Of a stretch of DNA of 64,000 bases, positions 25,673 through 63,714 are shown piece by piece. Position numbers and translations under genes: made by a program. Source of the DNA: a candidate division WOR-3 bacterium (GTDB taxonomy: Bacteria > Hydrothermota > Tepidihabitantia > SM23-42); NCBI GenBank assembly GCA_020343595.1, contig CP070802.1, positions 228,435 to 292,434 on the forward strand. The letters are read 5' to 3'. Numbering within the stretch: position 1 is the stretch's first letter; the number at the start of each line of letters is the position of its first letter. Under the pieces are notes generated by a model. The model saw only the letters and a program-made list of their open reading frames with translations. It searched no databases and had not been told where the DNA came from.

Positions 25673-25766
25673 ACATCCAAAAATCCAAAATTACTAAATA
25701 CCTAAACCTGATGGGTTTTTAGGTATATAGGAATTTAGGCATTTAGGTATTTGGAAATTCATCGGA
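25673..25766. repeat. Intergenic TTTAGGYA / TRCCTAAA repeat element (family A), copy 1
   Basis: CTAAATACCTAAACC on the left. TTTTTAGGTATATAGGAATTTAGGCATTTAGGTATTTGG on the right, as tandem 8 bp units. Lies upstream of the cupin gene. Confidence 0.6.
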
Positions 25767-27374
25767 TTACATTCTGAATACGCCGAATTTGTGGTCGGGA
25801 ATCGGCGCATTAAGCGACATAGAAATTGCCAGGCCCAATATTACTCTCGTGTCTTTGGGGTCGATTATACCATCATCCCAGAGCCGAGCCGTCGAATAGT
25901 ATGCACTCGATTCATAATCGTACTTTGCCAATATCGGTTTTCTGATCTCCTCGATCTCCTTTTTCGTTGGTTTCCTTCCTTCTTTTATCAACGACCGGAC
26001 TTTAATATCGGTCAACACGCCTGCCGCCTGCTCACCGCCCATGACACAAATCCTTGCTGTAGGCCACATCCAGAGCAACCGAGGATCATATGCACGACCG
26101 CACATGCCGTAGTTACCGGCACCGTAGGAATTACCGATGATAATCGTGAACTTCGGCACCTGGGCATTTGCCACAGCATGTATCAATTTCGCGCCATCCT
26201 TGGCAATACCCCCATGCTCATAACGCTTACCGACAATAAACCCTGTGATATTCTGAAGAAAGAGAATCGGAATTTTCCTAACCGCGCACATCGAGACGAA
26301 ATGCGCTCCCTTCTGTGAAGACTCAGAAAATAACACACCGTTGTTGGCAAGAATACCGACCGGATATCCCATGATCCTGGCGAAGCCGCATACCAAAGTT
26401 GTGCCGTAGAGTGATTTGAATTCGTGAAACTCGCTGCCGTCAACGATGCGAGCTATTATCTCACGCACATCAAACGGCTTCCTCAGATCGCTCGGGATAA
26501 TACCGTAAAGCTCAGAAGGATCGTAAGCAGGTTCCACCGGTCTTGAGCGGTCGAGAGGATATTTCTCTGATTTCGCCAGGTTTTCCATGATGTTTCTCGT
26601 CATTTCCAGAGCATGCTCATCATTGACCGCGAAGTGATCGGCAACTCCTGAGATACGGCAGTGAACATCGGCGCCTCCCAAATCCTCTTCGCTGACGACT
26701 TCTCCCGTTGCCGCCTTTACCAGAGGCGGTCCGCCAATGTATATCGTGCCTACGCCCTTGACGATCACCACCTCGTCGCTCATCGCAGGCTGGTAGGCAC
26801 CGCCGGCCGTGCAGAAACCAAGCACTACTGAAATCTGAGGTATGTTATCGGCCGACATACGTGCTTGATTGAAGAATATTCTTCCGAAGTGATATCTATC
26901 GGGGAACGTACCGACCTGGAGCGGAAGGAATATCCCACCCGAATCAACGAGGTAGATGCACGGCAGTCGATTCTCAATGGCGATCTCCTGGGCGCGGATA
27001 TGCTTCTTGATCGTCTCAGGAATATAGGTACCGCCTTTCACTGTCGCATCATGCGCAACAACCATCACCTCACGGTCATGGACAACGCCAATACCAGTGA
27101 TGATCGCAGCTGAGGGATGTTCATTCTTATACATATCCCATGCCGCAAGGTTGCTCAGTTCGAGAAACGGAGTATTAGGGTCGAATAACTGCTTGAGCCT
27201 GTCACGGACAAACAACTTACCCCGTTCTGCATGCTTTTTGTGCATATAATCAGGACCGCCTTCTCTCACCTTTACGAGACGCTCCTTCAGAGTGCGTACA
27301 GCTTCTTCCATAACAGATCTATTCTTCTTAAAATCTGCGCTCTGCGTACTTATCTTCGACTCAATTTTATACAT
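25767..27374 (-). CDS. Acyl-CoA carboxylase carboxyltransferase subunit (methylcrotonyl-CoA carboxylase beta-like)
   Basis: 535 aa. The N-terminus, with [28 protein letters not shown], resembles MCCase beta / geranyl-CoA carboxylase beta. Two crotonase-like carboxyltransferase domains. Confidence 0.8.
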
Positions 27375-27516
27375 AAATCACTTAAAGGATCCGGGTTACG
27401 CTGGACGGTTACGAAGCCCGTTTCGTTCGACGGTTACGTCTGCACATCAGTCACAACGTTACCGCGATCCGACAAACGATACGGGCATCGTTGCCTTAAA
27501 CCGTGCAACGTTGCCT
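27375..27516. repeat. GC-rich intergenic repeat element (family B), copy 1
   Basis: Shares ACGAAGCCCGTTtCGT.cGACGG, ACGGTTACG and ACGGGCATCGTTGCC blocks with 33394..33534. Contains small hairpins (AACGAT-ACGGGC-ATCGTT). Lies in the 5' region of the carboxyltransferase gene. Confidence 0.6.
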
Positions 27517-27903
27517 TCATATTAGTATTGCCTTATATCCGTAGCATATGATGCCAGTGTGTCCTTCGGTGTATAGTTTTCGGAAAACAAATTTCACTTT
27601 CTTACCGATCTCGAGTTCGTTCGGTTTGCAATCAACAACCTGTGTCGTGACTCTGACGCCGTTATCAGATTCAACAATGGCCACGCTATAGGGCACTTCC
27701 GTCTCAAAATCCTTTGGAGCAACTCGGATTGTCGTGAAGGTCAGTATCTTTCCATAGTCTGAAACCTTTTCTCCCTTGAAGTCTCGGGATCCGCAATTGC
27801 AGACCATACGCGGCGGAAAAGCAACGCGGCCACAGCCACTGCATTTTGCAGCCTCAAGTCGATATCTCTGAGGCATTTCTCTATGATATCTTGGTGATGG
27901 CAT
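27517..27903 (-). CDS. DUF35 Zn-ribbon / OB-fold protein (partner of archaeal-type thiolase and HMG-CoA synthase)
   Basis: 128 aa. Zn ribbon CSGCGRVAFPPRMVCNCGS followed by an OB fold. It lies directly upstream of the thiolase and HMGCS genes. Confidence 0.75.
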   Translation of the reverse strand: MPSPRYHREMPQRYRLEAAKCSGCGRVAFPPRMVCNCGSRDFKGEKVSDYGKILTFTTIRVAPKDFETEVPYSVAIVESDNGVRVTTQVVDCKPNELEIGKKVKFVFRKLYTEGHTGIICYGYKAILI

Positions 27904-28037
27904 TAAACCTCCTAAACAAAGAATAAATTCCTAAATCCGTCCGAGACGGACCAAAATACCTAAATTCCTAAACCTGCTTTAGGCATTTGTAAAAACGTGA
28001 TGTACTGATTCCTGTATCCACTAACCATTTAGGTATT
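27904..28037. repeat. Family A repeat element, copy 2 (with hairpin core)
   Basis: AAATTCCTAAATCC-GTCCGAGACGGAC-CAAAATACCTAAATTCCTAAACC, then CTTTAGGCATTTG ... CATTTAGGTATTTTAGGCATTTG. Lies upstream of the DUF35 gene. Confidence 0.65.
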
Positions 28038-29186
28038 TTAGGCATTTGTAAATATATGTACTACCGACGAGGCACCTGAACCACCCATATTCTGTGTTAA
28101 ACCGATTTTTGCGTTCTTGACCTGACGTTTTTCAGCCTCGCCGCGCAGTTGTTCAACGACTTCCACAACCTGTGCGACTCCAGTAGCACCGACCGGATGT
28201 CCTTTCGATTTCAGCCCGCCCGATGGATTAACCGGAATTTTGCCAGTCAACGAAGTATGGCCTTGTTCAGTGAACAAACCGCCCTTTCCTTTGTCAACAA
28301 AACCGAGTTCCTCGATAATGCATATCTCTGCGATCGAGAAGCAATCATGTACTTCGGCAAGGTCTATGTCCGACGGTTTGAGACCAGCCATCTTGTATGC
28401 CGCTTCAGCCGATTGTTTGACAGATCCGAGTGTGGTAATATCCTCACGCGCATGGAGAGCAAGCGTATCTGTGGCCGCGCCAGTGCCAATCACTTTCACG
28501 GCGGGCTTATTCACTTTCTTAGCGATGTCCATCGATGCCAGAAGCACACACGCCGCACCGTCTGAAACAGGAGAACTGTCGAGTACGGTAAGCGGGTCTG
28601 CCACCATCGTTGCCTTGATGACTTGGTCTACCGTAACTTCACCCCTGAACTGTGCGTTCGGATTGAGCGCACCGTTGTGGTGATTTTTTACCGAGACCAT
28701 AGCAAGCTGCTGCCTCGTTGTACCATATTTATGCATATGTGCCCTGGCGATCATTGCATACAAACCCGGGAACGTTACACCGTGGTAAACTTCATATTCT
28801 TGGTCAGCGGCTGTAGCCAGCGCGTATGTGACATCTGCACCATCGGTCATTTTTTCCACACCGCCAACCAGTACTACATCACTATGACCGGAAGCCACCT
28901 CAAATAGACCAAGGCGGAATGCCATGCCGCCCGAGCAGCAAGCTGATTCAACTCTCACCGCAGGTATTTGAGGTGTTCCGAGATAATCTGCCATCAATGC
29001 CCCGACGTGTTCCTGCCCCACGAAGAGACCAGGAGTCATAGAACCAACATACATCGATGAAATACGGTCAACACCTGCATCATCGATAGCTTTCAGCGCC
29101 GCTTCTACGAAAATATCTCTTAGAGACTTTTTCCATAGTTCACCGAATTTCGTCATACCACAACCAATTACCGCAACCTCACGCAT
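28038..29186 (-). CDS. Acetyl-CoA C-acetyltransferase (thiolase, archaeal type)
   Basis: 382 aa. N-terminus [13 protein letters not shown], and C-terminal GHPVGATG and HDCFS motifs. Confidence 0.85.
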
Positions 29187-29220
29187 ATCTTACCCCCTTT
29201 GAACACTGAATTCAGTGTAA

Positions 29221-30267
29221 TCAGTCATTCATTATGATCTTACCACGGAATTTGGCATAATGACCGTAGTCCAAGTAGATACGATTCGTTTCCAGCATAT
29301 CTCTCACCTTGTCAGCTTTGTCCCGTACTTCATCTATTCTTTCAGTAACCTTGAAAATAAACGCATCACTACCGGCACCAGAACCGAATGACACAAGAAG
29401 GATCATGTCGCCTTTCTTTGCAATATCGAGCGTTGCCGAAAAGCCTGTTGGTGAAGAACCTGAATATGTATTACCCATGAGTGGGACTACCCAACCCGGT
29501 TCGAGTTGTTCCCGCTTGAAACCAAGTTTCTTGCCGACGGTCAAAGGGAATTTTCCATTTGGCATGTGAAAGACGGCGTAATTGAAATCAGAGGCTTTTA
29601 ATCCGCTCTTCTTTAGGATCCCTTCACCCGCACCCAATATATGCTTGAAATATGCAGGCTGTCCAGTGAATCGTCCACCGTGCAAGGGATAGAAAGCTCC
29701 CTCGCGGCGCCAGAAATCAGGCGTATCGGTCGTATAAGAGTAAGTGTGCAGCAGTTCAGCAACGATCTTGTCTTTACCGAATATGAAGGCTGACCCGCCT
29801 GCGGATGCGCTGAACTCAAGAGCATCGCCCGGGGCGCCTTGCGATGTATCAGCACCAATCGCCAGTGCATACTTCATCTGATCTGCGCTGACAAGGCTGA
29901 AGGCTACGAACATAGCCTCGGTACCTGCCTTGCAGGCAAATTCATAGTCAGCAATATGCACCTCCGGTACAACACCAAGGGCTTCGGCGACGACCGTACC
30001 GGACGGCTTCACTGCGTATGGATGAGACTCCGAACCAATATATACTGCGCCGATATCCGCTGGATCGATCTCAGCCCGACGCAGTGCATTTCTGGCAGCC
30101 TCTACCGATATCGTGATCGTATCTTCGTCAAGAGCCGGGACTGTTTTCTCCTTCAGCAATAGACCTCTGCGTACTGCTTCTGCATCACGACCCCATTGCT
30201 TGGCGATCTCATCAACCTTTATTCTGTACCTTGGCAGGTAAGAACCATATCCAACAATACCAACCAT
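29221..30267 (-). CDS. Hydroxymethylglutaryl-CoA synthase (archaeal type)
   Basis: About 348 aa. Starts [22 protein letters not shown], which matches the archaeal HMGCS N-terminus. ATG at 30267 with a GGAAGGAGG RBS. The track ORF extends to a TTG at 30303. Confidence 0.8.
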
Positions 30268-30371
30268 CAAACCTCCTTCCAAAGACAAAGACCTAAATTC
30301 CAAAAGTCCTAAACACCTAAACGAAGCGACTACAGTCTTTTAGGCATTTAGGCATCTAGGTATTTAGGCAT
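30268..30371. repeat. Family A repeat element, copy 3
   Basis: GACCTAAATTCCAAAAGTCCTAAACACCTAAACG ... TTTTAGGCATTTAGGCATCTAGGTATTTAGGCATTT. Lies upstream of the HMG-CoA synthase gene. Confidence 0.6.
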
Positions 30372-31778
30372 TTATGTTTTCTCAAGTGCTTGTTCCAGAT
30401 CGGCTATCATGTCGTCTGGATGTTCGGCGCCTATACATAGTCTTATCAAATCTGCAGGAATACTTGCCATAGAACGGAGATCCTCACCCATCTGCTGATG
30501 GGTAGAGATCGAGGGGATCGTGGCCACCGACTTGATCCTCCCCAAATCGGTCGCGCGCCAGATACGCTTCAGATGATCGAAGAAAGCACGCGCCGCCGAA
30601 ATACCGCCTTTTAGTTGAAATGACATCAAATGACCGTATCTGTTCACCGGTTTCTTGTACTGGTCGTCGTATTCCGCGTCAACGAGCCAAAGGTACTTGG
30701 CCGCAACGTTGTGAAGGGAATGATTTCTTAAACCCAAATAATTGACGGCCGAAACCTTCGAATGCCCTTCAAGGAACTCCGCGACTTTCATTGAATTCTG
30801 ACTCAGAATATCCATTTTCGAACGCAAGGTCCGAATATCATTGAGGGTAAGAATCGCCTGCATCGGGGACAAACACCAACCGACATCCCTGTTCGGCAGC
30901 AGTTTGATGTATGTAGCAAAGTCCTCTCTCAGCTCATCATTGTCGATATTAGTAACGATATGCTTGCGCGCAATCACAGCTCCCGCAATACAGAAACCAC
31001 TTGCAGTCAGCGTTTTGGTAACGGAATGTACAACTATATCGGCGCCCAATGAAATCGGACGTAGTAGTGCCGGCGTGGCGATAGTCGTATCGAATATTGC
31101 GGGAATCCCGTGTTCATGTGCGAGGTCAATTACTTTTTTTAGGTCGAAGAACGATAAACCAGGATTTGAAGGCAGCTCTCCGAAAAGAAAGCGCGTATCA
31201 CTATCAATCTTGGACGCCCACTCATCAATGTTGTTGGGTTCAACAACCCAGCGGCATTCGATCCCACGATCCTGCATCTTACGGATATTGAACTGCTGGA
31301 ACGTACCTCCGTATATTTGGGCGTTAGAAACAAAATTGATGGGCTCGGTCGATTTCTTAGTGCTCTTGACGAGAAAAGGATCAGTGGCGCTCGCTATTGC
31401 GGCCATACCTGATGATGCCGCGCAGCATCCGGTCTCACCATCAAAGCCGTACCCCTCGAGCAAAGCCAGAGTAGCTTCGAGATAACCCATGGACGGGTTA
31501 TGAATTCTGCTGTATGTCCACGATGGTATAAGATAAGCCAGTGCCGCTTCCATCTCATCGCTATCACGGAAGGCCTGAGATGAACTCATATATACTGGCT
31601 CGATGATAGAACCCTGGTTATTCTCTATTGCCTCCTGCACAGAGTACGCGCCATGCACCGCTATTGTATCGAATTTCCATTTCTTCACTTCCTCGTCGAT
31701 GTACCGGCGGTGCGCGGCAAGAGCCTTCTTGGCATTGTCTACGTATTTCTGTACGCCCTCATTCATATTATCCTCCAT
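30372..31778 (-). CDS. Cys/Met-metabolism PLP-dependent enzyme (O-acetylhomoserine sulfhydrylase-like)
   Basis: 468 aa. Fold-type I transsulfuration family. PLP-Lys motif SVTKTL. Confidence 0.7.
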   Translation of the reverse strand: MEDNMNEGVQKYVDNAKKALAAHRRYIDEEVKKWKFDTIAVHGAYSVQEAIENNQGSIIEPVYMSSSQAFRDSDEMEAALAYLIPSWTYSRIHNPSMGYLEATLALLEGYGFDGETGCCAASSGMAAIASATDPFLVKSTKKSTEPINFVSNAQIYGGTFQQFNIRKMQDRGIECRWVVEPNNIDEWASKIDSDTRFLFGELPSNPGLSFFDLKKVIDLAHEHGIPAIFDTTIATPALLRPISLGADIVVHSVTKTLTASGFCIAGAVIARKHIVTNIDNDELREDFATYIKLLPNRDVGWCLSPMQAILTLNDIRTLRSKMDILSQNSMKVAEFLEGHSKVSAVNYLGLRNHSLHNVAAKYLWLVDAEYDDQYKKPVNRYGHLMSFQLKGGISAARAFFDHLKRIWRATDLGRIKSVATIPSISTHQQMGEDLRSMASIPADLIRLCIGAEHPDDMIADLEQALEKT

Positions 31779-31813
31779 AATGAGTCAAAACTACCGATTT
31801 CATCACGCAGTTT

Positions 31814-32983
31814 CTATATTTTTCTCAAGGCCAGGTCCAGATCATCGATGATATCATCCGGGTGTTCAAGACCAACGGACAGGCGTACGAATCCTGGCTT
31901 GATACCGCTTTCAAGAAGTTCACTTTCGCTGTAACCGGAATGAGTCATTGATCCAGGATGCTCGATAAGAGTATCGACGTCGCCGAGACTGACCGCGAGA
32001 GTACATAATTTGACCGAATTCATGATCGCCTTGCCGGCCTCCTTACCACCTTTAACATCAAAGCCGACCATTCCCCCAAAACCATTCATCTGTCGGCAAG
32101 CAACCTCATACCCGGGGTGTGATTCCAGCCCTGGATAATAGACGTGCTCGACCCTGTCGTGCTTCGTTAGAAATTCAACGATCTTCTGGGCATTTGAACA
32201 ATGCCTATCCATGCGGACAGCAAGGGTTTTCAATCCCCGCAGTATCAACCAGGCATTGAACGGAGATAGGGAAGCGCCTATGTCCTTTGCTCTCTTCCAC
32301 ATGTTCTTGACGAAATCCTGTGTACCAACGACAACACCGCCAATGATATCACCATGACCGCCAAAGTATTTCGTCGCGGAATGGACAACGATATCGGCAC
32401 CCAATCCGATCGGTCGTTGAAGGTACGGGGTGGCAAAAGTATTATCGACACAGAGCGGTATCCCTTTGCTGTGTGCCGAATCCACACATCGAGCGATGTC
32501 AATGATCTTCAGCGTCGGATTGGCTGGAGTCTCAATGAACAAGAGTTTCGTTTGTTCATTGACCGCTGCTTCCACCTGATCGATATCAGTTGCATCAACG
32601 AATGTTACCTTGATGCCAAGATCCGGCAACACGTTTTTAAAAAGTGTGTATGTACCGCCATAAATGGTATCGTCTGACACAACATTCTCTCCCGATTTCA
32701 CGGTCGATACCACAACATTGAATATCGCCGCGAGCCCGGATGCGAAAACCGAACCTGCCTGCGCCGATTCTAGAAGAGCGATCTTCGAGGCAAGAAGTTC
32801 GATCGTTGGGTTGCTGATCCGCGTGTAGATATGTCCGGGTTCCTCTCCTTTGAATAACCGCGCACCGTGGTCGGCATCACGGAAGACAAAAGTAGACGTT
32901 TGGTAAATCGGTGGCGATAATGCCCCCGTATGTTTGTCAGGATGCTGCCCGCCGTGGACAACATCTGTTTCGATATGCATCAC
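31814..32983 (-). CDS. Methionine gamma-lyase / cystathionine gamma-synthase family PLP enzyme
   Basis: 389 aa. Has ETDVVHGG, YTRISNPT, and the PLP-Lys motif SATKYFGGHGD. Confidence 0.8.
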   Translation of the reverse strand: MMHIETDVVHGGQHPDKHTGALSPPIYQTSTFVFRDADHGARLFKGEEPGHIYTRISNPTIELLASKIALLESAQAGSVFASGLAAIFNVVVSTVKSGENVVSDDTIYGGTYTLFKNVLPDLGIKVTFVDATDIDQVEAAVNEQTKLLFIETPANPTLKIIDIARCVDSAHSKGIPLCVDNTFATPYLQRPIGLGADIVVHSATKYFGGHGDIIGGVVVGTQDFVKNMWKRAKDIGASLSPFNAWLILRGLKTLAVRMDRHCSNAQKIVEFLTKHDRVEHVYYPGLESHPGYEVACRQMNGFGGMVGFDVKGGKEAGKAIMNSVKLCTLAVSLGDVDTLIEHPGSMTHSGYSESELLESGIKPGFVRLSVGLEHPDDIIDDLDLALRKI

Positions 32984-32988
32984 ACCTC

Positions 32989-33393
32989 CTAATCTCTCTC
33001 TTCCCGCTGGCTTAATTCAATCAGAACACCACCGGTTGAACGAGGATGAACGAACGCGATTTTTGCAGCGTGCGCGCCCTTACGCGGAATTTCATCGATC
33101 AATATAGCTCCTCTATTCTTAAGATCTTCCATCGATTTTTTGATATCTTCGACTTCAAAACTTAGATGATGCAACCCCTCTCCCCGCTTCTCAATGAATT
33201 TGTGGATCGTGCTGTCTTCACTCGTCGGTTCGAGGAGCTCAACGGTCACCCCTCCGACATCCAGCATTGCCACTCTCACCTTCTGCTCAGGTGTCTCTGA
33301 GATCATTTTCAAACTGAAACCGAGAAGATCACGCCAGATTCTGAGCTGATTCTCGATATCCTTAACAGCAATGCCTATATGTTCGAGTTTCAT
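32989..33393 (-). CDS. mce: Methylmalonyl-CoA epimerase (VOC/glyoxalase family)
   Basis: 134 aa. MKLEHIGIAVKDIE...GEGLHHLSFEV, typical of Mce. Confidence 0.75.
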   Translation of the reverse strand: MKLEHIGIAVKDIENQLRIWRDLLGFSLKMISETPEQKVRVAMLDVGGVTVELLEPTSEDSTIHKFIEKRGEGLHHLSFEVEDIKKSMEDLKNRGAILIDEIPRKGAHAAKIAFVHPRSTGGVLIELSQREERD

Positions 33394-33534
33394 ACTATAA
33401 AGATCGGAAAACGGTTCTCGGATACGAAGCCCGTTACGTCGGACGGAAGACGGTAACGTTTGTCCGGACGGTTGCCGTAACCTTTTGAGCCGAAACGGGC
33501 ATCGTCACCCATAACCTGTGATTCCTGTCTGCTC
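33394..33534. repeat. GC-rich intergenic repeat element (family B), copy 2
   Basis: ACGAAGCCCGTTACGTCGGACGG, GACGGTAACGTTTGTCCGGACGGTTGCCGTAACC and GAAACGGGCATCGT are collinear with copy 1. Lies in the 5' region of mce. Confidence 0.6.
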
Positions 33535-35915: not shown

Positions 35916-35950
35916 GTATCCTCCTTGTTTCTATCAAGTTCTGCTAAAAT

Positions 35951-37501: not shown

Positions 37502-37531
37502 GATAACCCACCAAAAACCCACATAGCATCC

Positions 37532-38023: not shown

Positions 38024-38024
38024 A

Positions 38025-39524: not shown

Positions 39525-39657
39525 TATTACTCTTTGGTCATTTGATTATGGCTATTTGTCATGGCAGCCGGTATTGTCACACGTTGTTGGTCTATGTAAC
39601 CACATCATATGACAAAGTACCAAACAGGCAACCACGCCAAACAACATAAAACTAGTT

Positions 39658-47220: not shown

Positions 47221-47248
47221 ACCGTCACCCCCCATGCAACAAATCCGA

Positions 47249-47737: not shown

Positions 47738-47740
47738 GAT

Positions 47741-48259
47741 TTACTCAGTACTCATCGCCTCACGTAAGCGCCCCCGTACTCCACCGGCAACCACTGCCAT
47801 CACAATCGACAGGACCACACCTATCTCTTCGTCTGTGATTTTCTGCTGCTTGGCGACGCCAAGTAGATTCTTCATTCACGTGGGGCAGCCATTTGCCAAT
47901 GCCGCTGCTATCTGGATCAATAGTGTAGTGCGGGCATCAAGCACATCATTCTGCTTCGCCGATTCGAAAAAATCAGAAAATTTCTTCTTCTGAACATCAG
48001 GTATCGAACCTGTTTCTTTGCGGTGGAGGATGCTGCATGCAGAAACTGCCATGACCAAAGAAAGAACAGTACCCGTATGTTCTTCTGTAAAACCTTTTTC
48101 CCTGGCAACTCCAAGGTAGTATCTCATTCACGATCCGCAGCCAAAAGAAGTCGCCGTCGCAAGGTGGAGCATAAGAGTGGTATCCTCCCCGAGCACCTTG
48201 TTGTAACGGGCAGATTCATAGAATGACGTGTATGCTTTGTTCTGTTTATCAGGCAACAC
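47741..48259 (-). CDS. Tandem AhpD/carboxymuconolactone-decarboxylase-like protein with two in-frame TGA codons; probable selenoprotein with Sec at both sites (CxxU x2)
   Basis: GTG start at 48259, 5 nt after a GGGGAGG RBS; stop TAA at 47743..47741. A 173-codon frame is open except for TGA at 48130..48128 and at 47878..47876. Domain 1 reads ...ATATSFGCGS-[TGA]-MRYYLGVAREKGFTEEHTGTVLSLVMAV. Domain 2 reads ...IAAALANGCPT-[TGA]-MKNLLGVAKQQKITDEEIGVVLSIVMAV. Each TGA replaces the second Cys of the AhpD-family CxxC motif. The track shows only the middle piece (47876..48127). Confidence 0.6.
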
Positions 48260-48298
48260 TTTCACCTCCCCACAAAGACGCGTTCGGTCAAACAGATT

Positions 48299-49777: not shown

Positions 49778-49878
49778 AAATGCCCACCTCTGTCATAACG
49801 TTATTCTCCCGAAGGTACCTGTGCTCCAAGCATAGGGCTGCGCTGCACCGTTCGGATAACACTGAAAGCAGTGGCCGA

Positions 49879-51961: not shown

Positions 51962-52060
51962 TACCGTCAGCCTCTAAGGACACGCTTTTGGCCGTCCGAA
52001 AGAACGGCGAAAATAACGAAACTAACGGAAACAACAATAACAACGTCATATGCAAATAGA

Positions 52061-53755: not shown

Positions 53756-53768
53756 ATTATCTCTCCCG

Positions 53769-54455: not shown

Positions 54456-54478
54456 ACCTCACACCGTCTGTGATGCTA

Positions 54479-55966: not shown

Positions 55967-55975
55967 AACATGCTC

Positions 55976-57181
55976 TCACCCATCCTGGTTTTCGTTCACT
56001 GACTCGTACAGAAGCTCAGAAATATCCTTAACCTCAATATCCAGATTCATCGCCTTCACGGTCTCTTCGAACATCTGAAGGCAGTATGGACATGCAACCG
56101 CGATAACCTCGGCACCAGTATCGACCAACTGTTTCACACGTATGTCGGCCATGCGCTCACCCTTGGGCCAGTCGATCCAGAGCGCCCCGCTTCCCGCACC
56201 GCAGCAAAGGCTCAGGTTGCGCGAGAAATCCTCAACCTCCAGTAATTCCAGACCAGGGATACTCTTGAGGATATTCCTCGGTGGATCGTAAATGCCACTC
56301 TGACGTCCGAGCGTACACGGGTCGTGGTATACTACTTTCTTCTTCAAACTCTTTTTCGGGACTATTTTCCCGCGCTCGATGCAGTCCCACAAAAATTCCG
56401 TAGCATGTACCGCCTTGAATTCGCCGCCGAAATCCGGATATTCCTTCTGAAAAGTCACGAGACAGTGAGGCGAACTGACGAGCGCCATCTTCACATTAGC
56501 CTCCTTGAAGCCATCGATGTTAGATCGGGCAGTCTCTTCGAAGACCTTCTCGGCACCAACCCTACGGATGGCCTCGCCGCAGCAACTCTCCTTTTGTCCA
56601 AGAATGCCGAAAGAAACACCGGCACGCTTGAGCAACCCGGCCGTAGATCTTGCGACGTTCCTGATCCTGTTATCGTACGAAGGCAAGCAGCAGGCGAAAT
56701 ACAGCATCTCCATATTCTCCGAATAATCGCCGATAAGGAGTTCTTTCGCCCAGTCACCACGATTTTCACGCGGCTCACCGAGTGGATTTCCTACGTTGTG
56801 AATCTTCTGGACAACGGATTTGAGGTTCTCCGGATAGGAGCCAAAATCTACCAGAATCCTCCGTGCCGACCGCAGGATATGAGGCATCTCCACTCCCAAC
56901 GGACATTGATCAACGCAAGCCTCGCAGCCGACACAACGGTAGATCTTATCGACTTCCCTGGCCAACTCATCCTTGTCCTCACTGCTCGCGATAAGACCAA
57001 GTACCGTTTCGAGGGGAAACCTGAACACAAGAAACTCATATGTTCCCACTTGAAACCAGGGACATACGCTGGCACATTTGCCGCATTGATAGCACTTGTA
57101 GGCATCAACCGCGCCCATTTCCACAAGAGCATCCCTGATCTCTGGGTTTATCTCCGCGACTATGTTCTTTTTATTCGCCAA
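55976..57181 (-). CDS. HdrD/GlcF-like Fe-S oxidoreductase (2x[4Fe-4S] ferredoxin domain plus two CCG domains)
   Basis: 401 aa. CYQCGKCASVCP and CVGCEACVDQCP, followed by two CCG-type Cys-rich domains (CCGEAIRR, CCGAGSGALW). Confidence 0.75.
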   Translation of the reverse strand: MANKKNIVAEINPEIRDALVEMGAVDAYKCYQCGKCASVCPWFQVGTYEFLVFRFPLETVLGLIASSEDKDELAREVDKIYRCVGCEACVDQCPLGVEMPHILRSARRILVDFGSYPENLKSVVQKIHNVGNPLGEPRENRGDWAKELLIGDYSENMEMLYFACCLPSYDNRIRNVARSTAGLLKRAGVSFGILGQKESCCGEAIRRVGAEKVFEETARSNIDGFKEANVKMALVSSPHCLVTFQKEYPDFGGEFKAVHATEFLWDCIERGKIVPKKSLKKKVVYHDPCTLGRQSGIYDPPRNILKSIPGLELLEVEDFSRNLSLCCGAGSGALWIDWPKGERMADIRVKQLVDTGAEVIAVACPYCLQMFEETVKAMNLDIEVKDISELLYESVNENQDG

Positions 57182-60100
57182 GGATAACCTCCACCATTTT
57201 TGAAATCTGCTTTTCGACCAGATTCTTCTGTTGTGAAGCTCCGCTCGGACACGCTGCTACACAACATCCGCATCCCATACACAGTGCTTCGTTTATTCTT
57301 ACGATATTCTTTTCCTCATCGATCTCTCGCGCCTCGTAGGGACACGTAACAACGCACATTTTGCAGCCACTACACATTTCCTCATCGATCACAACGACCA
57401 TCGGTTCGGCGGTCAATTCCTTTTTGGAGAACATTTCGAGTGCCTTGGATGCCGCCGCCGATGCCTGAGCAACACTCTCGGGAATATCTTTCGGCGTCTG
57501 AGCACAACCGGCGAGGAAGAATCCAGGCACGAGGGATTCCACCGGCCGTAATTTTGGATGAGCCTCATTGAAGAATCCATGGATATTTGTCTGTATTCTG
57601 AGTTTCTTTGCCAAATCGGATGTCTCCATTGAAGGCACCACTGCCATCGACAACACCACCATATCACACTTGACCTTGAGTGGACGGCCGGTCAGCGTAT
57701 CAGTGCTCCACACAATAAGGTCTTTGCCGTCTTTAATTACACGCGACGGCTTACCGCGGATGTAAAGCACATTCTCTCCTTCCTTCGCCCGCATGAAGAA
57801 CTCTTCATAGTCTTTTCCCGCCGTCCTTATGTCTATCGAAAATACTACTGCTTCACCATCGGGCACACGTTCCTTGTACAACAGGGCATGTTTCGTGTTG
57901 TACATACAGCAGATCTTTGAGCAATACGGGAGATGGTGTTCCGGATCACGCGAACCGGCGCATGATATGAAAGCAATTCTCTTTGGTATGCTATTGTCGG
58001 ATGGTCTACGAATCTCGCCTTGCGTGGGTCCGGAAGCAGACAGCAGACGTTCAAACTGAAGGCCATCTATCACATCTTCATACCGGCCCGCACCGTACTC
58101 ACGGATCTTCTCGACCGGGTACAGCTCGTAACCGGTAGCGACGATCACGGCACCAACCTCTTCTTCCACCAGTTCATCCTCCATGCCGTGCACTATCGCA
58201 TCTTGTTCACAAGCCTTCTCACACTCACCACATTCAGTGCATCCTCCACAGGCGAAACAGCGTAAAGCCTCGATCTTGGTCTGTTCGGCAGTCAGCCCCA
58301 AATTAACTTCATCGAAATTGCCAGTCCGATCGGCAGCAGAGAGTGTGCGCACCTCCTGCCGTAAATTATCCTTGATGGTTCTCGGCAGGATTATATTCTT
58401 AACCGGTTCGGTCCTCGCCCGGTTCTCATACATGTCGGCGCCATTGAAATATCGATCAATAGAAACCGCCGCCTCCTTACCGTCGGCGATCGCCCAGATT
58501 ACCGTATCTGGACCCCGTACCGCGTCACCTCCGGCAAAAACACCCGGTATCGACGTTTGCTTTGTAGTATCATCAACGACAATACTACCCCATTCGCTTG
58601 TCTCTATCCCCGTTCCTGCTGGAAGGTAGGACAGATCAGGTGATTGTCCGATGGTTACGACAACGGTATCGACTCCGATCGTAAAATCAGAGCCCGGTAT
58701 TGGCTCGGGACGCCGGCGTCCGGATTCATCAGGCGCGCCGAGTCGCATCTGTATGCACTTCATTTCCTTCAAGGTACCACCACTACCGACAAAAGATATC
58801 GGTGTCGCGAGGAATCTGATTTCAATACCTTCCTTCATTGCCTCTTCGATCTCATCAGGATCAGCTGGCATTTCCGTAAGGGAACGCCTGTAGACGATCG
58901 TCACTTCTTTTGCACCCAGCCTGAGCGCAGTGCGCGCGGCATCGATGGCGGAATTACCACCGCCGACCACGGTAACCCGGGACCCTACTGCGGGCTTTTC
59001 TTCGAGGTTGGCACGGCGTAAGAAATCGATGCCATAGTAGACGCCCTGCAAGTCCTCACCGTCGACGTTCAATCTCCGTTCGACATGCGCGCCGCTACTG
59101 AGATACACCGCATCAAAACCGCTCTTCCGAAGCTTTTCTGGATCTTCGATCCTTTGCCCGGTTACGATCTCAACACCCCATGACTTGATGTAATCGATAT
59201 CCTGTTCGAGCATCTTACGTGGCAACCTGAATTCGGGAATACCTGTTATCAACATCCCACCGGCTACTGGCAGCGCCTCAAAGACTTTTGCTTTGTATCC
59301 ACGTTTCGCCAAGAAGTATGCACAACTCAATCCTGACGGACCGGCGCCAACCACTGCCACCTTTTTCTTACGTTCCTCTGGTTTATCATGTGCCGGCAGC
59401 TGTTCTTCAACATCGGAGATGAACCGTTTTATCGCGCGTATCGACACAGCATCACCGAACTCAGCCCTCTTGCATTCTGATTCGCATGGATGCGTGCACA
59501 CGCGACCGCAGACCGAGGCAAATGGATTGTCCTCGCGCTCAAGAGCGAGTGCCTCCTTGAACTTACCTTGCGATGAAAGCGCGACGTACCCCTGGACGTT
59601 AACACCTGCCGGGCACGCCGTACGGCAAGGAGGTACACCCCTCTTGTCAATCGTGTAGACATTGGGCACGGCCTGAGGGAATGGTCGGTAGATGGCTTTC
59701 CTCTGTGAAAGTCCTGAGTCAAATTCATTTACCATCAATACAGGACACGCCGGATCGCAATCCGCACAGCCATTGCATTTGTTATTATCAACGAAAGATG
59801 CTTTCCTTCTTATCTTCACCCGGAAATTACCGACCGAACCCGCTACTTCTTCAACTTCCGAGTACGTGTAGAGTTTTATCTTTTCATGGTGTGAAACATC
59901 CACCATCTTAGGCGTGAGGATACACTGTGAGCAATCAAGGGTAGGAAAGGTCTCGGACAACTGCGCCATATGACCTCCCACCGACGGGCTTTTTTCAACC
60001 AGCACCACTTCATAGCCGGAATTTGCAATATCGAGCGCCGCCTGAATGCCGGCAATGCCGCCGCCGAGCACAAGTGCTCTTGTGTTAACCGGGATCTTTG

Positions 60101-60503
60101 CTGGTTCTAAAGCATCATTGTATTTGACCTTCTCAATCGTTGCCTTTATGATCCCGCTCGCTTTTCTCGTCGCCTCCTTGCCATCATCGTGGATCCAACT
60201 GCACTGCTCCCTTATGTTCGCCATCTCCAGGAGGTATGGATTAAGACCGGCATCCTGTATGGCCCGTCGGAACGTAACCTCGTGCAGCAACGGGCTGCAT
60301 GAGGCAACCACGATAGCATCAAGTTTCTTCTCCCTTAGCTTCTCCTTGATCATTACCTGACCAGGATCTGAACACAGGTACTTGTAATCCTCGCAGTGCT
60401 CTACCCCAGGATGCGTGCTGATATCCTTCACCAATTGCTCGATATCCACCTTAGTGCTAATATTCCTCCCACAGTGACAGATAAAGACGCCTATTCTCTT
60501 CAT
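57171..60503 (-). CDS. HdrA-like flavoprotein with N-terminal MvhD-like domain and inserted GltD/NfnB-like NAD(P)H-binding module
   Basis: 1110 aa. HdrA FAD motif VLGGGIAGIQAAL...FPTLDCSQCI. Inserted module with GAGPSGLSCAYFLA and VVGGGNSAIDAA, like the glutamate synthase small subunit. C-terminal CFACGGCTECGECEKAC. Two terminal 4Fe-4S motifs, CSGCKMCVVTCP and CMGCGCCVAACP. Confidence 0.8.
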   Translation of the reverse strand: MKRIGVFICHCGRNISTKVDIEQLVKDISTHPGVEHCEDYKYLCSDPGQVMIKEKLREKKLDAIVVASCSPLLHEVTFRRAIQDAGLNPYLLEMANIREQCSWIHDDGKEATRKASGIIKATIEKVKYNDALEPAKIPVNTRALVLGGGIAGIQAALDIANSGYEVVLVEKSPSVGGHMAQLSETFPTLDCSQCILTPKMVDVSHHEKIKLYTYSEVEEVAGSVGNFRVKIRRKASFVDNNKCNGCADCDPACPVLMVNEFDSGLSQRKAIYRPFPQAVPNVYTIDKRGVPPCRTACPAGVNVQGYVALSSQGKFKEALALEREDNPFASVCGRVCTHPCESECKRAEFGDAVSIRAIKRFISDVEEQLPAHDKPEERKKKVAVVGAGPSGLSCAYFLAKRGYKAKVFEALPVAGGMLITGIPEFRLPRKMLEQDIDYIKSWGVEIVTGQRIEDPEKLRKSGFDAVYLSSGAHVERRLNVDGEDLQGVYYGIDFLRRANLEEKPAVGSRVTVVGGGNSAIDAARTALRLGAKEVTIVYRRSLTEMPADPDEIEEAMKEGIEIRFLATPISFVGSGGTLKEMKCIQMRLGAPDESGRRRPEPIPGSDFTIGVDTVVVTIGQSPDLSYLPAGTGIETSEWGSIVVDDTTKQTSIPGVFAGGDAVRGPDTVIWAIADGKEAAVSIDRYFNGADMYENRARTEPVKNIILPRTIKDNLRQEVRTLSAADRTGNFDEVNLGLTAEQTKIEALRCFACGGCTECGECEKACEQDAIVHGMEDELVEEEVGAVIVATGYELYPVEKIREYGAGRYEDVIDGLQFERLLSASGPTQGEIRRPSDNSIPKRIAFISCAGSRDPEHHLPYCSKICCMYNTKHALLYKERVPDGEAVVFSIDIRTAGKDYEEFFMRAKEGENVLYIRGKPSRVIKDGKDLIVWSTDTLTGRPLKVKCDMVVLSMAVVPSMETSDLAKKLRIQTNIHGFFNEAHPKLRPVESLVPGFFLAGCAQTPKDIPESVAQASAAASKALEMFSKKELTAEPMVVVIDEEMCSGCKMCVVTCPYEAREIDEEKNIVRINEALCMGCGCCVAACPSGASQQKNLVEKQISKMVEVILGE

Positions 60504-60505
60504 GG

Positions 60506-61480
60506 CTACTTTTTCACTTCCAGTATCTTGCTCTTCAATACCGGCAAGACCTTGAAAAGATCGTCGACGATACCGTAGTCGGCTTCGTTGAAGATTGGTG
60601 CATTCGGATCCTTGTTGATGGCGATTATTGTATCGGAATTCTTCATCCCCGCGATGTGTTGAAATGCCCCCGAAATACCGATCGCAATGTAAAGCTTCGG
60701 CTTGACGGTCTTTCCCGAAGATCCAACTTGCCGGTCCTTGGGCAGCCAGTTCGCATCAACTATCGGCCGTGAGCACGCAACGACGCCACCGACAGCACTG
60801 GCAAAATCCTCGACCATGGACAGATTCGCTTGCTCCTTTATACCACGGCCAATACCGACGACCACATCGGCTTTAGTGATATCAACATCCCCAACCGCTG
60901 CTTCGACATATTCTATGAATCTCCTGTACTCGGGCTGGCTCGTGAGCGGTGCATCTATTTTCTCGATCTCGGCAGAGAGGCCACCGTCTTCTGCCGGACA
61001 AGTGCCGCTCCGCAATGTCAGCATATAGTGAGGACCCTGGGCCAGTCTCAGATGGGCATCCATCTTACCATCATACAGCTGACGTGTCACCCTGATACCT
61101 CCATCCACGACTTCCACTCCTATACAGTCGGTGGTGAAAGGAATACCGAGTTGGGTCGCAAGCGATGGGCAGAAATCTATGCCGAACGCGGTATTACCAA
61201 TAATGGTCAGAAAAGGGCTCTCCTTCTTGACGACGGCAGAGATCGCCTCCTGATATACGTCGCCGTTGAAATCCTTGAAAACTTCATGGTCAGCAACGAC
61301 AAGACGATGAACGTGTTTCTTGATATCTTCCTGGAGGTCATCGGTATTATGACCCAGCAACACGCCAATCAATTTCGCATTGGTCTTTTCTGCCAGTTTT
61401 CTCCCGAACGTCATCAATTCGTACGTGATGTCTCTGACTACTCCCTGACGGTGTTCAACCACTGTTAGAATATCAGCCAT
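60506..61480 (-). CDS. etfA: Electron transfer flavoprotein alpha subunit
   Basis: 324 aa. ETF alpha FAD-binding C-terminus (LYIAIGISGAFQHIAGMKNSDTIIAINKD). Confidence 0.85.
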   Translation of the reverse strand: MADILTVVEHRQGVVRDITYELMTFGRKLAEKTNAKLIGVLLGHNTDDLQEDIKKHVHRLVVADHEVFKDFNGDVYQEAISAVVKKESPFLTIIGNTAFGIDFCPSLATQLGIPFTTDCIGVEVVDGGIRVTRQLYDGKMDAHLRLAQGPHYMLTLRSGTCPAEDGGLSAEIEKIDAPLTSQPEYRRFIEYVEAAVGDVDITKADVVVGIGRGIKEQANLSMVEDFASAVGGVVACSRPIVDANWLPKDRQVGSSGKTVKPKLYIAIGISGAFQHIAGMKNSDTIIAINKDPNAPIFNEADYGIVDDLFKVLPVLKSKILEVKK

Positions 61481-61490
61481 TATTCCCCCC

Positions 61491-62261
61491 TTAGATCAGT
61501 CCCTTTTCTTTGATTATACCTGCGGTTCTCGTCGCAACTTCATCAGTGTTACCGCTCATAATCTCGGCTCTCTTTCCAACGGGTGGTATGAAAAGTTCTT
61601 CGAGTGTGCTGTTGGTCTTGGCTTCAAGAGCAATGTCGCTCTTACCCACAACCTTGATCTCTTTTGCAGCCGCTCTGCGTATCGCGATCAACGACGCATA
61701 ACGTGGTTCATTGATGCCGGTTTGCACGGCAAAGACTGCCGGTAATGACATCTGGAGATGCTCGATCAAACCGCCCTCAAGTTCACGATTTACATCAGCC
61801 TTGCCGTCAGTTATGTCCACCTTGCTCACCAAAGTCGCGTGAGGCACGCCGAGCATTTCAGCAAGTACCGGACCCACCTGGTAATAACTATCGTCGGTCG
61901 CCACGCAGCCGGTGAATATCGCGTCGAATTTTGTGTCTTTTATCACCTCTTTTAGCAATGCGGCGGTCTTGAATCCATCCAGATCCCCGAAATCCTCAGC
62001 CTTTATCCTGATTGCACTGTCAGCTCCCTTTGCCAGAGCAATACGAAGGGTATCTTCAGCATCAGCTATACCGAGGGAAACCGCAGTTATGGTCCCACCG
62101 AATTTCTCTTTGAGAAGGATCGCCGCTTCGAGAGCATATGTATCTGCCTCGTTCATATCGAACGTCAAACGATCCCTGACTATATCCTTGCCCGTTGCAT
62201 CAACCTTGACCTCGGCCTCAGCGGTCTGGGCAACTCTCTTAACGCAGACGATCAGGTCCAA
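61491..62261 (-). CDS. etfB: Electron transfer flavoprotein beta subunit
   Basis: 256 aa. ETF beta N-terminus MDLIVCVKRV, and conserved AVSLG and DAIFTG segments. Confidence 0.85.
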   Translation of the reverse strand: MDLIVCVKRVAQTAEAEVKVDATGKDIVRDRLTFDMNEADTYALEAAILLKEKFGGTITAVSLGIADAEDTLRIALAKGADSAIRIKAEDFGDLDGFKTAALLKEVIKDTKFDAIFTGCVATDDSYYQVGPVLAEMLGVPHATLVSKVDITDGKADVNRELEGGLIEHLQMSLPAVFAVQTGINEPRYASLIAIRRAAAKEIKVVGKSDIALEAKTNSTLEELFIPPVGKRAEIMSGNTDEVATRTAGIIKEKGLI

Positions 62262-62405
62262 AACAACCTCCTTCCTAAAATCAAATTCCTAAATCCGCCT
62301 GATGCGGCCAAAATACCTAAACTACCTAAACATGTAAGCAGCCACCATAAATGTCTCAACAACTTACCGCCCTTTAGGTATTTAGGATTTTTGGTATTTA
62401 GTTAT
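62262..62405. repeat. Family A repeat element, copy 4 (with hairpin core)
   Basis: AAATTCCTAAATCC-GCCTGATGCGGC-CAAAATACCTAAACTACCTAAAC ... CTTTAGGTATTTAGGATTTTTGGTATTTAG. About 60 nt are collinear with copy 2. Lies upstream of etfB. Confidence 0.65.
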
Positions 62406-63551
62406 TTATCTCGTAAGTTCTCTCGCGATAACGATCTTCTGGACTTCAGATGTACCCTCATATAACTCCAGGATCTTGGCGTCGCGGTACAGTCTTTCCA
62501 CTGCGTAGTCCTTTGAATATCCATAGCCGCCGTGTATTTGAACCGCCTTCCTGACCACATCAACGGCAATATCAGACGCATAGTATTTTGACATCGCCGA
62601 TTCCTTGGAGAACCTCTTCATACCTTTGTCTTTGCAGTAACCTGCATAATGGACTAAGAGACGTGCCGCCTGGATCTGAGTTGCCATTTCAGCCAGCATT
62701 GACTGGATCATTTCGAAGTTACATATCGGTTGTCCGAATGCTTTACGCTCCTTCGAATACTTCACTGCTTCATCCAGAGCAGCCTGAGCAATACCGACTG
62801 CCTGCGCGCCTATATCGATACGCGAAACATCGAGTGTGTTCATACATATCTTGAAACCATCGCCTTCATTAGCAAGGAGATTCTCTTTCGGTACTTTGAC
62901 ATCCTCGAAGATCAATTCGCAATTTGCCGTCGCCCTAATGCCCATCAGGTCTTCATGATTCCCGAGACTGAAGCCGGGTGTGTCGCGCTCGACCACAAAG
63001 GCGCTGATCCCCTTGTGTTTCAGTTCCCTGTTGGTATAGGCAAATACAACAAATGTCCCGGCCTCACCGCCGTTGGTGATGAAACGTTTTGTCCCGTTAA
63101 GGATGTAGTGGTCGCCTTCCAACCTTGCCGTCGATTCCATGGCGGCGACATCCGACCCCGCATTAGGTTCGGTAAGACCAAACGCACCGACTCTTTCACC
63201 ACTGCACAATGGCGGTAGATACTTCTTTTTCTGTTCTTCGTTACCGAACTGTGCTATCGGATATGTAGTCAACGAATTGTTCACGGCAACAATCACGCCG
63301 GTCGAGGCACAAGCACGGGAAATCTCCTCGATTGCGATAGCCAGTGACACAAAATCGAATCCGGAACCGCCGTATTGCTCTGGGACAATCACACCGAGTA
63401 AACCCAACTGCGCCATCTTTTTTATAGTAGCCCACGGGAACTCCCTGGATTTATCAATTTCCGGTGCCAGCGGTGCCAATTCACTCTGCGCGAACTTGCG
63501 TACTTCTTCCTGAAGCATCTTCTGATCATTGGTTAAATCAAAATTCATCAA
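62406..63551 (-). CDS. Acyl-CoA dehydrogenase (butyryl-CoA dehydrogenase-like)
   Basis: 381 aa. ACAD N-, middle and C-domains. C-terminal YEGTSEVQKIVIAR, and catalytic Glu region. Confidence 0.85.
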   Translation of the reverse strand: MMNFDLTNDQKMLQEEVRKFAQSELAPLAPEIDKSREFPWATIKKMAQLGLLGVIVPEQYGGSGFDFVSLAIAIEEISRACASTGVIVAVNNSLTTYPIAQFGNEEQKKKYLPPLCSGERVGAFGLTEPNAGSDVAAMESTARLEGDHYILNGTKRFITNGGEAGTFVVFAYTNRELKHKGISAFVVERDTPGFSLGNHEDLMGIRATANCELIFEDVKVPKENLLANEGDGFKICMNTLDVSRIDIGAQAVGIAQAALDEAVKYSKERKAFGQPICNFEMIQSMLAEMATQIQAARLLVHYAGYCKDKGMKRFSKESAMSKYYASDIAVDVVRKAVQIHGGYGYSKDYAVERLYRDAKILELYEGTSEVQKIVIARELTR

Positions 63552-63689
63552 ACCTCCTTAATCGTTGAAATCTCAAAATCCAAAATTCAAATCTCAGATG
63601 ATGGACATATCTCAAAACCCAAACGCTTTTTGTCCATCGTGATTGGTTTGATTGGTAATTTCTTGTTATTTGGACCTTTGTGATTTGAT

Positions 63690-63714
63690 ATTTAGGCAAG
63701 TCACTTGCCTAAAA
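63690..63714. repeat. Perfect palindrome built from two family A units (TTTAGGCAAGT-c-ACTTGCCTAAA)
   Basis: 11+1+11 nt perfect inverted repeat overlapping the stop codon of the partial ACAD gene. Lies upstream of bcd. Confidence 0.55.

Follow-up and report, generated by a model that had tools for sequence, protein, structure and literature searches.

Octamer-armed hairpin elements in operon spacers of a WOR-3 bacterium: likely gene-less derivatives of cassettes carrying a PF05635 gene

Introduction

Intervening sequences (IVS) of 23S rRNA and their S23p genes came to light in the early 1990s and still lack an agreed function or origin, and heptamer-type intergenic repeats have been described separately and are unexplained. 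Here we analyse a 64,000-nucleotide stretch of a candidate division WOR-3 bacterium (contig CP070802.1, positions 228,435 to 292,434; hereafter the window), in which clusters of the octamer TTTAGGYA lie in five spacers between genes of acyl-CoA metabolism. We consider it likely that these clusters, which we call family F1, are the two inverted arms of hairpin-forming selfish cassettes, and that the window copies (E1 to E5) are gene-less derivatives, resembling MITEs (miniature inverted-repeat transposable elements), of cassettes that carry a PF05635 gene.

The S23p-type IVS of Leptospira, Coxiella and Brucella resemble the full-length cassettes in having a PF05635 open reading frame (ORF) enclosed by terminal inverted repeats that pair into a ~28-32-bp stem, short direct repeats in tandem within the arm and in variable copy number (GACAGAT three to four times in Coxiella, octamers in WOR-3), a decaying ORF without a good ribosome-binding site, and selfish behaviour (PMC4990558). 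The Coxiella 23S IVS comprises an S23p ORF and a terminal stem of 28 bp, which RNase III cuts and which contains three to four tandem GACAGAT heptamers, their number varying between strains (PMC4990558). S23p-type IVS sit in helix 9, 25 or 45 of 23S rRNA, whereas the WOR-3 copies all lie between protein genes on the same strand; E1 to E5 hold no ORF, many unit families co-exist, and some carry a PF13366 gene. A PF05635 gene in the loop is found in the F1 cassettes of relatives and in one cassette of the window (21872-22393), and is absent from E1 to E5. Excision by RNase III is assumed for the WOR-3 elements by analogy.

According to its published description (PMC4692102), the GGGAATC repeat of Xanthomonas is a simple sequence repeat found between genes and often in inverted pairs, forms G-quadruplexes and is 'not associated with mobile elements'; PF05635 genes have been reported between cmr3 and cmr2 in cas operons (PMC3936711). 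Like GGGAATC and the GGGGAYT/short tandemly repeated repetitive (STRR) sequences of Nostoc and Calothrix (PMC4692102), the WOR-3 elements consist of tandem intergenic units of 7-8 nt, mostly between same-strand genes and near the upstream stop; the Xanthomonas heptamers often form inverted pairs, as in WOR-3, and length varies between close relatives in both. The heptamer repeats have been read as quadruplex formers, whereas quadruplex formation is impossible for the AT-rich units of WOR-3. The heptamer class is descriptive rather than a homology family, sharing its architecture with WOR-3 (8-nt units in F1, 7-nt units in others) and having unrelated unit sequences. Inverted pairs flank a PF05635 gene both in WOR-3 relatives and at accB-accC of Xanthomonas.

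Among short dispersed repeats, the Correia elements (nemis) of Neisseria, for which RNase III cleavage is on record, and the enterobacterial repetitive intergenic consensus (ERIC) or intergenic repeat unit (IRU) are, like F1, short, multi-copy, bounded by inverted repeats, situated in transcribed intergenic DNA and polymorphic between strains. Unlike them, F1 has arms of tandem 7-9-nt units, A/C-only in one arm and G/T-only in the other; the WOR-3 elements showed no target-site duplication and have no known cognate transposase, and the full-length relative encodes a non-catalytic four-helix-bundle protein. The F1 elements share with MITEs their shortness (~80-160 nt), copy number (four to five per 64 kb in the window) and terminal inverted repeats, and an origin by internal deletion is supported, but the parent ORFs belong to PF05635 or PF13366, neither a known transposase. 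Repetitive extragenic palindromic (REP) sequences, bacterial interspersed mosaic elements (BIMEs) and the REPINs that depend on REP-associated tyrosine transposases (RAYT) are, like the WOR-3 elements, extragenic palindromes between operon genes and can stabilise upstream mRNA (PMC3116915). The WOR-3 arms differ in being much longer, internally periodic and tied to small passenger genes, and neither a REP head motif nor a RAYT gene was found in the window.

TTTAGGYA clusters in five operon spacers

TTTAGGYA has 16 exact matches in the window against 2.46 expected, a count that none of 100 shuffles reached, and every match falls inside five spacers or at their margins (25673-25766, 27904-28044, 30290-30371, 62262-62405 and 63691-63713). 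A composite 22-mer (TTTAGGNNTTTAGGNNTTTTGG, up to three mismatches) gave 14 matches against 0.05 expected. An earlier inspection of the window by a model (the sequence-only reading) had placed the five clusters 5' of cupin, DUF35, HMGCS, etfB and bcd genes. This placement was confirmed, the DUF35 gene being ChsH2-like, the third gene HMGCS-like and bcd an acyl-CoA dehydrogenase gene. Since the long ORFs of the window are all on the minus strand, the spacers are read on that strand, in the gene orders carboxyltransferase-E1-cupin, thiolase-E2-DUF35, pyridoxal phosphate (PLP) enzyme-E3-HMGCS-like, bcd-E4-etfB and acyl-CoA dehydrogenase-E5-bcd. The elements are as follows.

E1: 25673..25766, minus strand, gene-less F1 element between carboxyltransferase (25767-27374) and cupin (25325-25672)
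E1 arms: 5' arm 25716-25759 (NNCCTAAA units) and 3' arm 25675-25708 (TTTAGG/TTTTGG units), minus strand, 30-nt arms, 80% complementary, RNA fold -24.4 kcal/mol, z -4.6
E2: 27904..28044, minus strand, gene-less F1 element between thiolase and DUF35, first unit overlapping the last thiolase codons (28028-28044)
E2 3' arm: 27915-27972, minus strand, includes a small GC hairpin (27936-27950)
E3: 30290..30371, minus strand, gene-less F1 element between the PLP-enzyme and HMGCS-like genes, 5' arm 30339-30371, 3' arm 30290-30321, RNA fold -30.6 kcal/mol, z -5.6
E4: 62262..62405, minus strand, gene-less F1 element between bcd (62406-63551) and etfB (61491-62261)
E4 arms: 5' arm 62373-62402 and 3' arm 62278-62330, the latter with a small GC hairpin (62294-62308), minus strand
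E5: 63552..63713, minus strand, palindrome 63691-63713 spanning the TGA stop of acyl-CoA dehydrogenase, then a CAAA.../...TTTGA hairpin (63565-63690)

On the mRNA strand the layout is stop codon, NNCCUAAA three to four times, a centre, UUUAGGNN four times (UUUAGG/UUUUGG units), a GGAGG Shine-Dalgarno sequence and the start codon, and the five spacers show a strong 8-nt periodicity (lag-8 autocorrelation z = 9.4). The arms are ~30 nt long and 75-89% complementary. Their units are not identical: the 3' arm has the fixed order TTTAGG, TTTAGG, TTTTGG, TTTAGG, and in the 5' arm a CCTAGA/CCAAAA variant recurs at the mirrored position, both being kept across loci and genomes. Each 8-nt unit supplies a TAA or TGA and could stop all three frames, a property of F1 and of the ACACTGAA family but not of every family, and at most a side benefit.

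Copies 1 to 4 show the pattern claimed for all five, a run of tandem units that faces its reverse complement across the spacer; copy 5 has one palindrome only. This exact 11+1+11 palindrome upstream of bcd (63691-63713) is the sole F1 motif of its spacer, the remainder of which is a hairpin of different units. Its left half is the coding end (..ILGK*) of the acyl-CoA dehydrogenase gene upstream and is conserved in L002 and L003 (L numbers denote retrieved relative loci; L001 is CP070686.1, WOR-3). The collinear core noted in copies 2 and 4 was borne out along the 3' arm, including the small GC hairpin (TCCGTCTCGGACGGA at 27936-27950 in E2, GCCGCATCAGGCGGA at 62294-62308 in E4). Over 13 related copies the best register of this hairpin is (U)CCGYC-loop-GRCGG(A), 95% paired, of largely constant sequence and altered in both partners at just two of six pairs; the compensatory signal that had been taken as the mark of a selected structure is real but modest.

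Full-length cassettes and their remnants in related genomes

At the thiolase-to-DUF35 junction that E2 occupies in the window, L082, L084, L088/89, L093, L100 and L161 hold an F1-armed cassette of 470-490 nt. Its order is stop codon, NNCCTAAA three to four times, ATG, a 124-aa four-helix-bundle ORF of PF05635/TIGR02436, stop codon, and a 3' arm that reads TTTAGGNA-TTTAGGNA-TTTTGG(AC or small GC hairpin)-TTTAGGNN-TTT before the Shine-Dalgarno sequence. The ORF shares the operon's strand and matches TIGR02436 with E 2e-19 and PF05635 with E 3e-15; the protein subfamily starts KYSVSDELKERT and goes with CCTAAA/TTTAGG arms. The 3' arms of E1 to E4 align column for column, unit order included, with the sequence that follows the stop of this ORF, and the small GC hairpin stands at that place in L082, L084 and L161.

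Deletion remnants of the gene were also found. The centre of E2 retains a short stretch resembling the 3' end of the four-helix-bundle gene; L081 and L108 retain its first codons only (KYSISD.LKER) and L091 its last codons only, and in L092 the ORF is truncated. With the thiolase as query, 80 syntenic loci of 69-95% identity were recovered from metagenomes, and in relatives with at most 71% thiolase identity thiolase and DUF35 overlap by ATGA and the HMGCS-to-thiolase spacer is ~12 nt. The ATGA overlap without a spacer would be the ancestral empty state. Because relatives hold the gene-bearing version at the same junction, others its remnants and distant ones no spacer, we read the window copies as gene-less derivatives.

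Within the WOR-3-like clade each junction varies from 0 to ~700 nt, with spacer lengths clustering at ~70-260 and ~470-550 nt. At the E3 junction F1 occurs in L082, L089, L093 and L095, and other families in L081, L083, L086, L087, L092, L096 and L116. The bcd protein assigns the window to candidate division WOR-3; a look-up for an identical protein gave no match. At the bcd-to-etfB junction (E4), L001 and L003 (bcd protein identity to the window 93% and 81%) have hairpins of other units, and L002 (85%) a 28-nt spacer only. The closest relatives (L081, 95% thiolase identity; L001, 93% bcd identity) have other families at the E1, E3 and E4 junctions, while four-fold sites compared with L081 are only about half diverged; the families thus appear to turn over fast among close relatives. 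Comparing spacer identity with four-fold-site identity is uninformative, as low-complexity arms of unrelated families align at ~77% anyway.

Further unit families in the window

The other long spacers of the window are mostly occupied by at least five further families of the same architecture with different units of 7-9 nt, and 14 window spacers without TTTAGGYA show a 7-nt periodicity (z = 5.0). One arm is almost purely A/C and its partner almost purely G/T, and because of this segregation an arm can pair only with its own partner. CAAA.../...TTTG units make up the elements at 18097-18212 and 19557-19688 and the body of E5. Elements outside F1 are listed below.

18097..18212, minus strand, other-unit element (CCAAA/ACAAA ... 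TTTGG/TTTGT) between 3-hydroxyacyl-CoA dehydrogenase and thiolase, lag-7 z 4.7
19557..19688, minus strand, other-unit element between enoyl-CoA hydratase and 3-hydroxyacyl-CoA dehydrogenase, lag-7 z 5.1
21872..22393, minus strand, gene-bearing cassette: G/T-rich arm 22338-22390, PF05635/TIGR02436 ORF 21889-22331, A/C-rich arm 21875-21935 overlapping the 3' end of the ORF
24410..24486, minus strand, apparent solo arm, resembling the 3' arm of the GCAGAT/ATCTGTTTGAATCCG GxxExxY cassette family (3' arm in L086; L003 12066-12153)
27375..27516, minus strand, gene-less GTAACG/CGTTAC + GCCCGT/ACGGGC element between DUF35 and carboxyltransferase
29203..29218, minus strand, footprint palindrome of ACACTGAA and TTCAGTGT, one unit per arm, in the HMGCS-like-to-thiolase spacer (29187-29220)
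33394..33534, minus strand, second GTAACG/GCCCGT copy
39525..39657, minus strand, sibling of the 21872-22393 cassette without a gene, with the G/T-rich arm first (GGTTGTTTGG ... CCAACAAC units)

The ORF at 21889-22331 is the only PF05635 gene of the window (TIGR02436 E 6e-13). It is split by a 1-nt frameshift after ..DLEVYQKTYQA, which could reflect a pseudogene or an assembly error; the corrected protein matches positions 1-105 of the 106 of PF05635 with E 1.6e-17. The GTAACG/GCCCGT family is present at the DUF35-carboxyltransferase junction in L086, L095, L099, L101, L103, L104 and L109 as well, and a related family flanks a PF05635 ORF in L086 (2706-3143). In a second family gene-less copies retain ATGACCAAAATMCAAAATTCAAAAC, the N-terminal codons of its own ORF.

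The 34-nt HMGCS-to-thiolase spacer of the window equals an empty site (L081: TGA-ATAAAGGGGG) plus a perfect 16-nt palindrome, ACACTGAATTCAGTGT. Full-length GxxExxY cassettes with ACACTGAA...TTCAGTGT arms occupy this junction in L083, L084, L087, L089, L101, L110 and L122, and by its sequence the palindrome at 29203-29218 is the footprint of such a cassette.

The ORFs of long spacers are of two kinds. One belongs to TIGR02436/PF05635 ('four helix bundle protein', '23S rRNA-intervening sequence protein', S23p/Avd-like) and falls into four subfamilies with E-values of 3e-15 to 3.5e-32, the closest solved structures being 2rld and 2gsc (XCC0516); the other is TIGR04256/PF13366 GxxExxY, with a PD-(D/E)XK fold. 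Every protein subfamily is paired with its own unit sequence, and all cassette ORFs in syntenic WOR-3-like loci are co-oriented with the operon. Around 22 cassette ORFs the flanks are complementary with a median duplex z of -2.85, and 10 of the 22 lie below -3, against 3 of 62 small host genes; these scores are understated, since the mononucleotide shuffles used for comparison keep the A/C versus G/T segregation of the arms.

Two further arrangements were noted. The HMGCS-to-thiolase and carboxyltransferase-to-cupin spacers of L116 and L117 contain nested hairpins, a GTAACG/GCCCGT-type element (in L117, CCCCCTC...GAGGGGG) lying inside the loop of a TCTAAA/TTTAGA-type element. Some GxxExxY cassettes (L114, 1389-1863; L138; L150) are flanked by direct rather than inverted composite repeats: in L114 CAGAATTCAGTTTGCATCAATG stands on both flanks, and the two flanks of L150 are inverted repeats in their own right.

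Occurrence in other operons and lineages

The same arms bound an F1 cassette in another operon of WOR-3 genome CP070664.1, where a 127-aa gene is followed by a NuoF-like gene; the tie of the elements to acyl-CoA genes reflects which genes the window contains. Members of WOR-3, Stahlbacteria, Cloacimonetes and Marinimicrobia encode 190 homologues of the F1 protein. A scan of viral contigs with the F1 22-mer gave three matches, which is the chance level. In loci of Bacteroidota and other phyla, PF05635 or PF13366 genes are flanked by yet other unit families. In Xanthomonas a four-helix-bundle gene of the XCC0516 family lies between accB and accC (L173 1424-1880; L175 1424-1875), flanked on one side by GGGAATC GGGAGTG GAGAATC GGGAATC and on the other by CCATTCC CCATTCC CGACTCC CTATTCC, four units each. 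The published GGGAATC heptamer repeat is identifiable from this comparison as the arm of a PF05635 cassette at accB-accC.

Folding and proposed mechanism

The five F1 spacers fold into long imperfect stems of ~30 bp (z -1.1 to -5.6). A structured leader RNA had been among the suggestions for these repeats, and the spacers should indeed fold into a long stem in the operon transcript; in an Rfam scan of the window two tRNAs alone reached the gathering score, the elements matched no family and no rRNA was found. Neither promoters nor terminators were found in excess in the elements.

The cassettes are inserted in operon orientation, each after the stop codon of an operon gene and ahead of the next gene's Shine-Dalgarno sequence, and in the window copies internal deletion has removed the gene to leave hairpins of ~80-160 nt (E1 to E5). 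As the elements have no promoter, terminator or Shine-Dalgarno sequence of their own, they are presumably transcribed within the operon mRNA, where the A/C arm and the G/U arm would pair to an imperfect stem of ~28-32 bp (four units of 7-8 nt), loop out the payload and put the upstream stop beside the downstream ribosome-binding site. Since S23p-type IVS share this architecture and are cut by RNase III, the likeliest fate by analogy would be that of a tolerated insertion, its stem cut by RNase III or serving as an intercistronic stability element. The elements would then persist as selfish, quickly turning-over DNA and not as host regulators, with arm length and matching probably kept by unit slippage in replication and template switching between the arms.

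Sequence comparison establishes the anatomy of the elements, their homology to gene-bearing cassettes, the deletion series, and their dispersal and polymorphism. Several points nevertheless weigh against selfish cassettes as the explanation. Their mobility is suggested by distribution, and neither PF05635 nor PF13366 is known as a transposase. No target-site duplication was seen in the comparison of the HMGCS-to-thiolase empty site with its footprint, or in the one clean filled/empty pair, from another family, in which L085 has a 42-nt solo-arm insertion relative to L086. F1 units are kept at the E3 junction of genomes with saturated four-fold sites (identity 0.30-0.38), which could mean constraint or host function and not re-insertion. 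Four elements, E2 and E4 among them, have unremarkable fold z-scores (-0.6 to -1.9), and antisense folds match the sense fold in stability in four of seven elements; the elements may have a role at the DNA level. G.U pairs number 247 in sense against 203 in antisense (55:45, p = 0.04, with non-independent copies), which hints weakly at strand-specific selection on RNA, a bias that cannot separate RNA-level from DNA-level selection. Evolution could in some cases have run in reverse, with genes captured by pre-existing hairpins; for F1 such capture is disfavoured because deletion remnants exist.

Alternative explanations

The repeats might instead be recognition sites, in RNA or DNA, for a pentameric PF05635 protein encoded elsewhere, which would bind the four to five tandem units and either move cassettes or control operons post-transcriptionally, the gene-less copies being targets in trans. 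Each protein subfamily travels with its own unit sequence, XCC0516 and 2rld were solved as five-chain assemblies, arms have about four units in WOR-3, Xanthomonas and Coxiella alike, and one junction has kept its F1 units in spite of saturation at synonymous sites. In addition, Avd, a relative of the PF05635 protein from diversity-generating retroelements, binds nucleic acid and reverse transcriptase (PMC10053308). We nevertheless hold this explanation to be unlikely, because co-inheritance of protein and arm is expected from common descent alone, the window has no intact F1-type gene, the Coxiella S23p protein appears not to be made (PMC4990558), and the PF13366 GxxExxY cassettes have the same tandem-unit arms around an unrelated protein, which argues that the design is not specific to a four-helix-bundle ring. 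Slightly less probable again are host-selected intercistronic stem-loops, akin to REP/BIME, that would set cistron stability or translation in acyl-CoA operons and have small genes as occasional passengers. Such selection would fit the exact stop-to-Shine-Dalgarno position in operons of multi-subunit enzymes that were ancestrally translationally coupled, the stems that enclose the entire spacer, the slight sense-strand excess of G.U pairs and the retention of F1 sequence at the E3 junction over diverged genomes. It sits poorly with junctions whose element differs in presence, family and length among the closest relatives, many of which have no spacer, with nested elements (L116, L117), solo arms, footprints and gene remnants inside elements, and with the occurrence of the same families in unrelated operons.

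The leading idea of the sequence-only reading, operators for a regulon-wide transcription factor of a catabolic island, now seems very improbable. It had drawn on repeated, partly palindromic 8-mers 5' of five functionally related genes, but the sites are intercistronic and without promoter signals, and the search for a nearby regulator that it called for found none among the genes of the 64-kb window; moreover, orthologous spacers of the nearest relatives hold unrelated units or nothing, F1 also occurs in the NuoF-like operon elsewhere, and neighbouring spacers hold six further unit families of the same architecture. We give equally little credence to an artefact of composition or slippage in AT-rich spacers without common origin: tandem units of 7-9 nt are prone to slippage and many different units do occur, yet here non-identical units keep a fixed order over loci and genomes, the arms are complementary, and the 22-mer far exceeds its expected count. 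The suggestion of a REP/MITE-like family came closest, the elements being dispersed, polymorphic and bounded by inverted arms; it missed the origin from PF05635 cassettes and the other families. Binding repeats of the TRAP, HutP or CsrA kind (UAG/GGA every 8 nt) were also considered and set aside, as unit sequences differ wholly between families of the same architecture.

A wider class of cassettes

The comparison of the window elements with those of relatives places S23p-type IVS, four-helix-bundle and GxxExxY genes in operons, and inverted tandem-repeat hairpins on one footing, in a series that runs from empty site through full-length cassette, truncated gene and gene-less hairpin to a 16-nt footprint. 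For annotators it is a reason not to count such genes among the working parts of the operons that contain them (acc, cas or thiolase/HMGCS, for example). Many operon mRNAs are predicted to contain RNase III sites, and Xanthomonas accB-accC offers a tractable system for studying the function of the elements. S23p-type IVS and MITE-like hairpins are known kinds of element. Our literature search found no earlier description of such cassettes in operon spacers, and their location there, the gene-less octamer-armed forms, the co-existence of several families including GxxExxY and the link to heptamer repeats appear to be undescribed in the searchable literature.

A broader proposal is speculative, and we would sooner doubt than accept it: PF05635 and PF13366 genes may mark a widespread and so far undescribed class of selfish cassettes, with ~30-nt arms of four 7-8-nt units, for which any strongly transcribed RNA, rRNA or operon spacer, could serve as home. 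Hosts would tolerate them since pairing of the arms closes up the transcript again. Gene-less remnants of this class would then explain the WOR-3 octamers, the Xanthomonas GGGAATC repeats and possibly cyanobacterial STRR, and the class would account for the 23S_rRNA_IVP genes in cas operons. In its boldest form the ring protein would itself read the units and mediate mobility at the RNA level or regulation in trans.

Other observations in the window

The hairpin elements all lie in the acyl-CoA, propionyl-CoA and electron transfer flavoprotein (ETF) operons (16800-64000), and none was seen among the housekeeping genes of positions 1-16800 (ispG, murA, mutL, radA, mla, dnaB, coaBC). At 470-1679 a tRNA-Cys and a tRNA-Gly adjoin a tyrosine recombinase gene (Phage_integrase family), possibly an integration site, or the recombinase may simply be xerC/D. 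On the minus strand, a 561-nt gap between predicted ORFs (47738-48298) can be read as a single ORF that contains two in-frame TGA codons. These lie in AhpD/CMD-like halves arranged in tandem, have a C-x-x-U context (..FGCGS*MRYYLGVA..; ..NGCPT*MKNLLGVA..) and are each followed 11-15 nt on by a small hairpin; the ORF probably encodes a selenoprotein with two selenocysteines.

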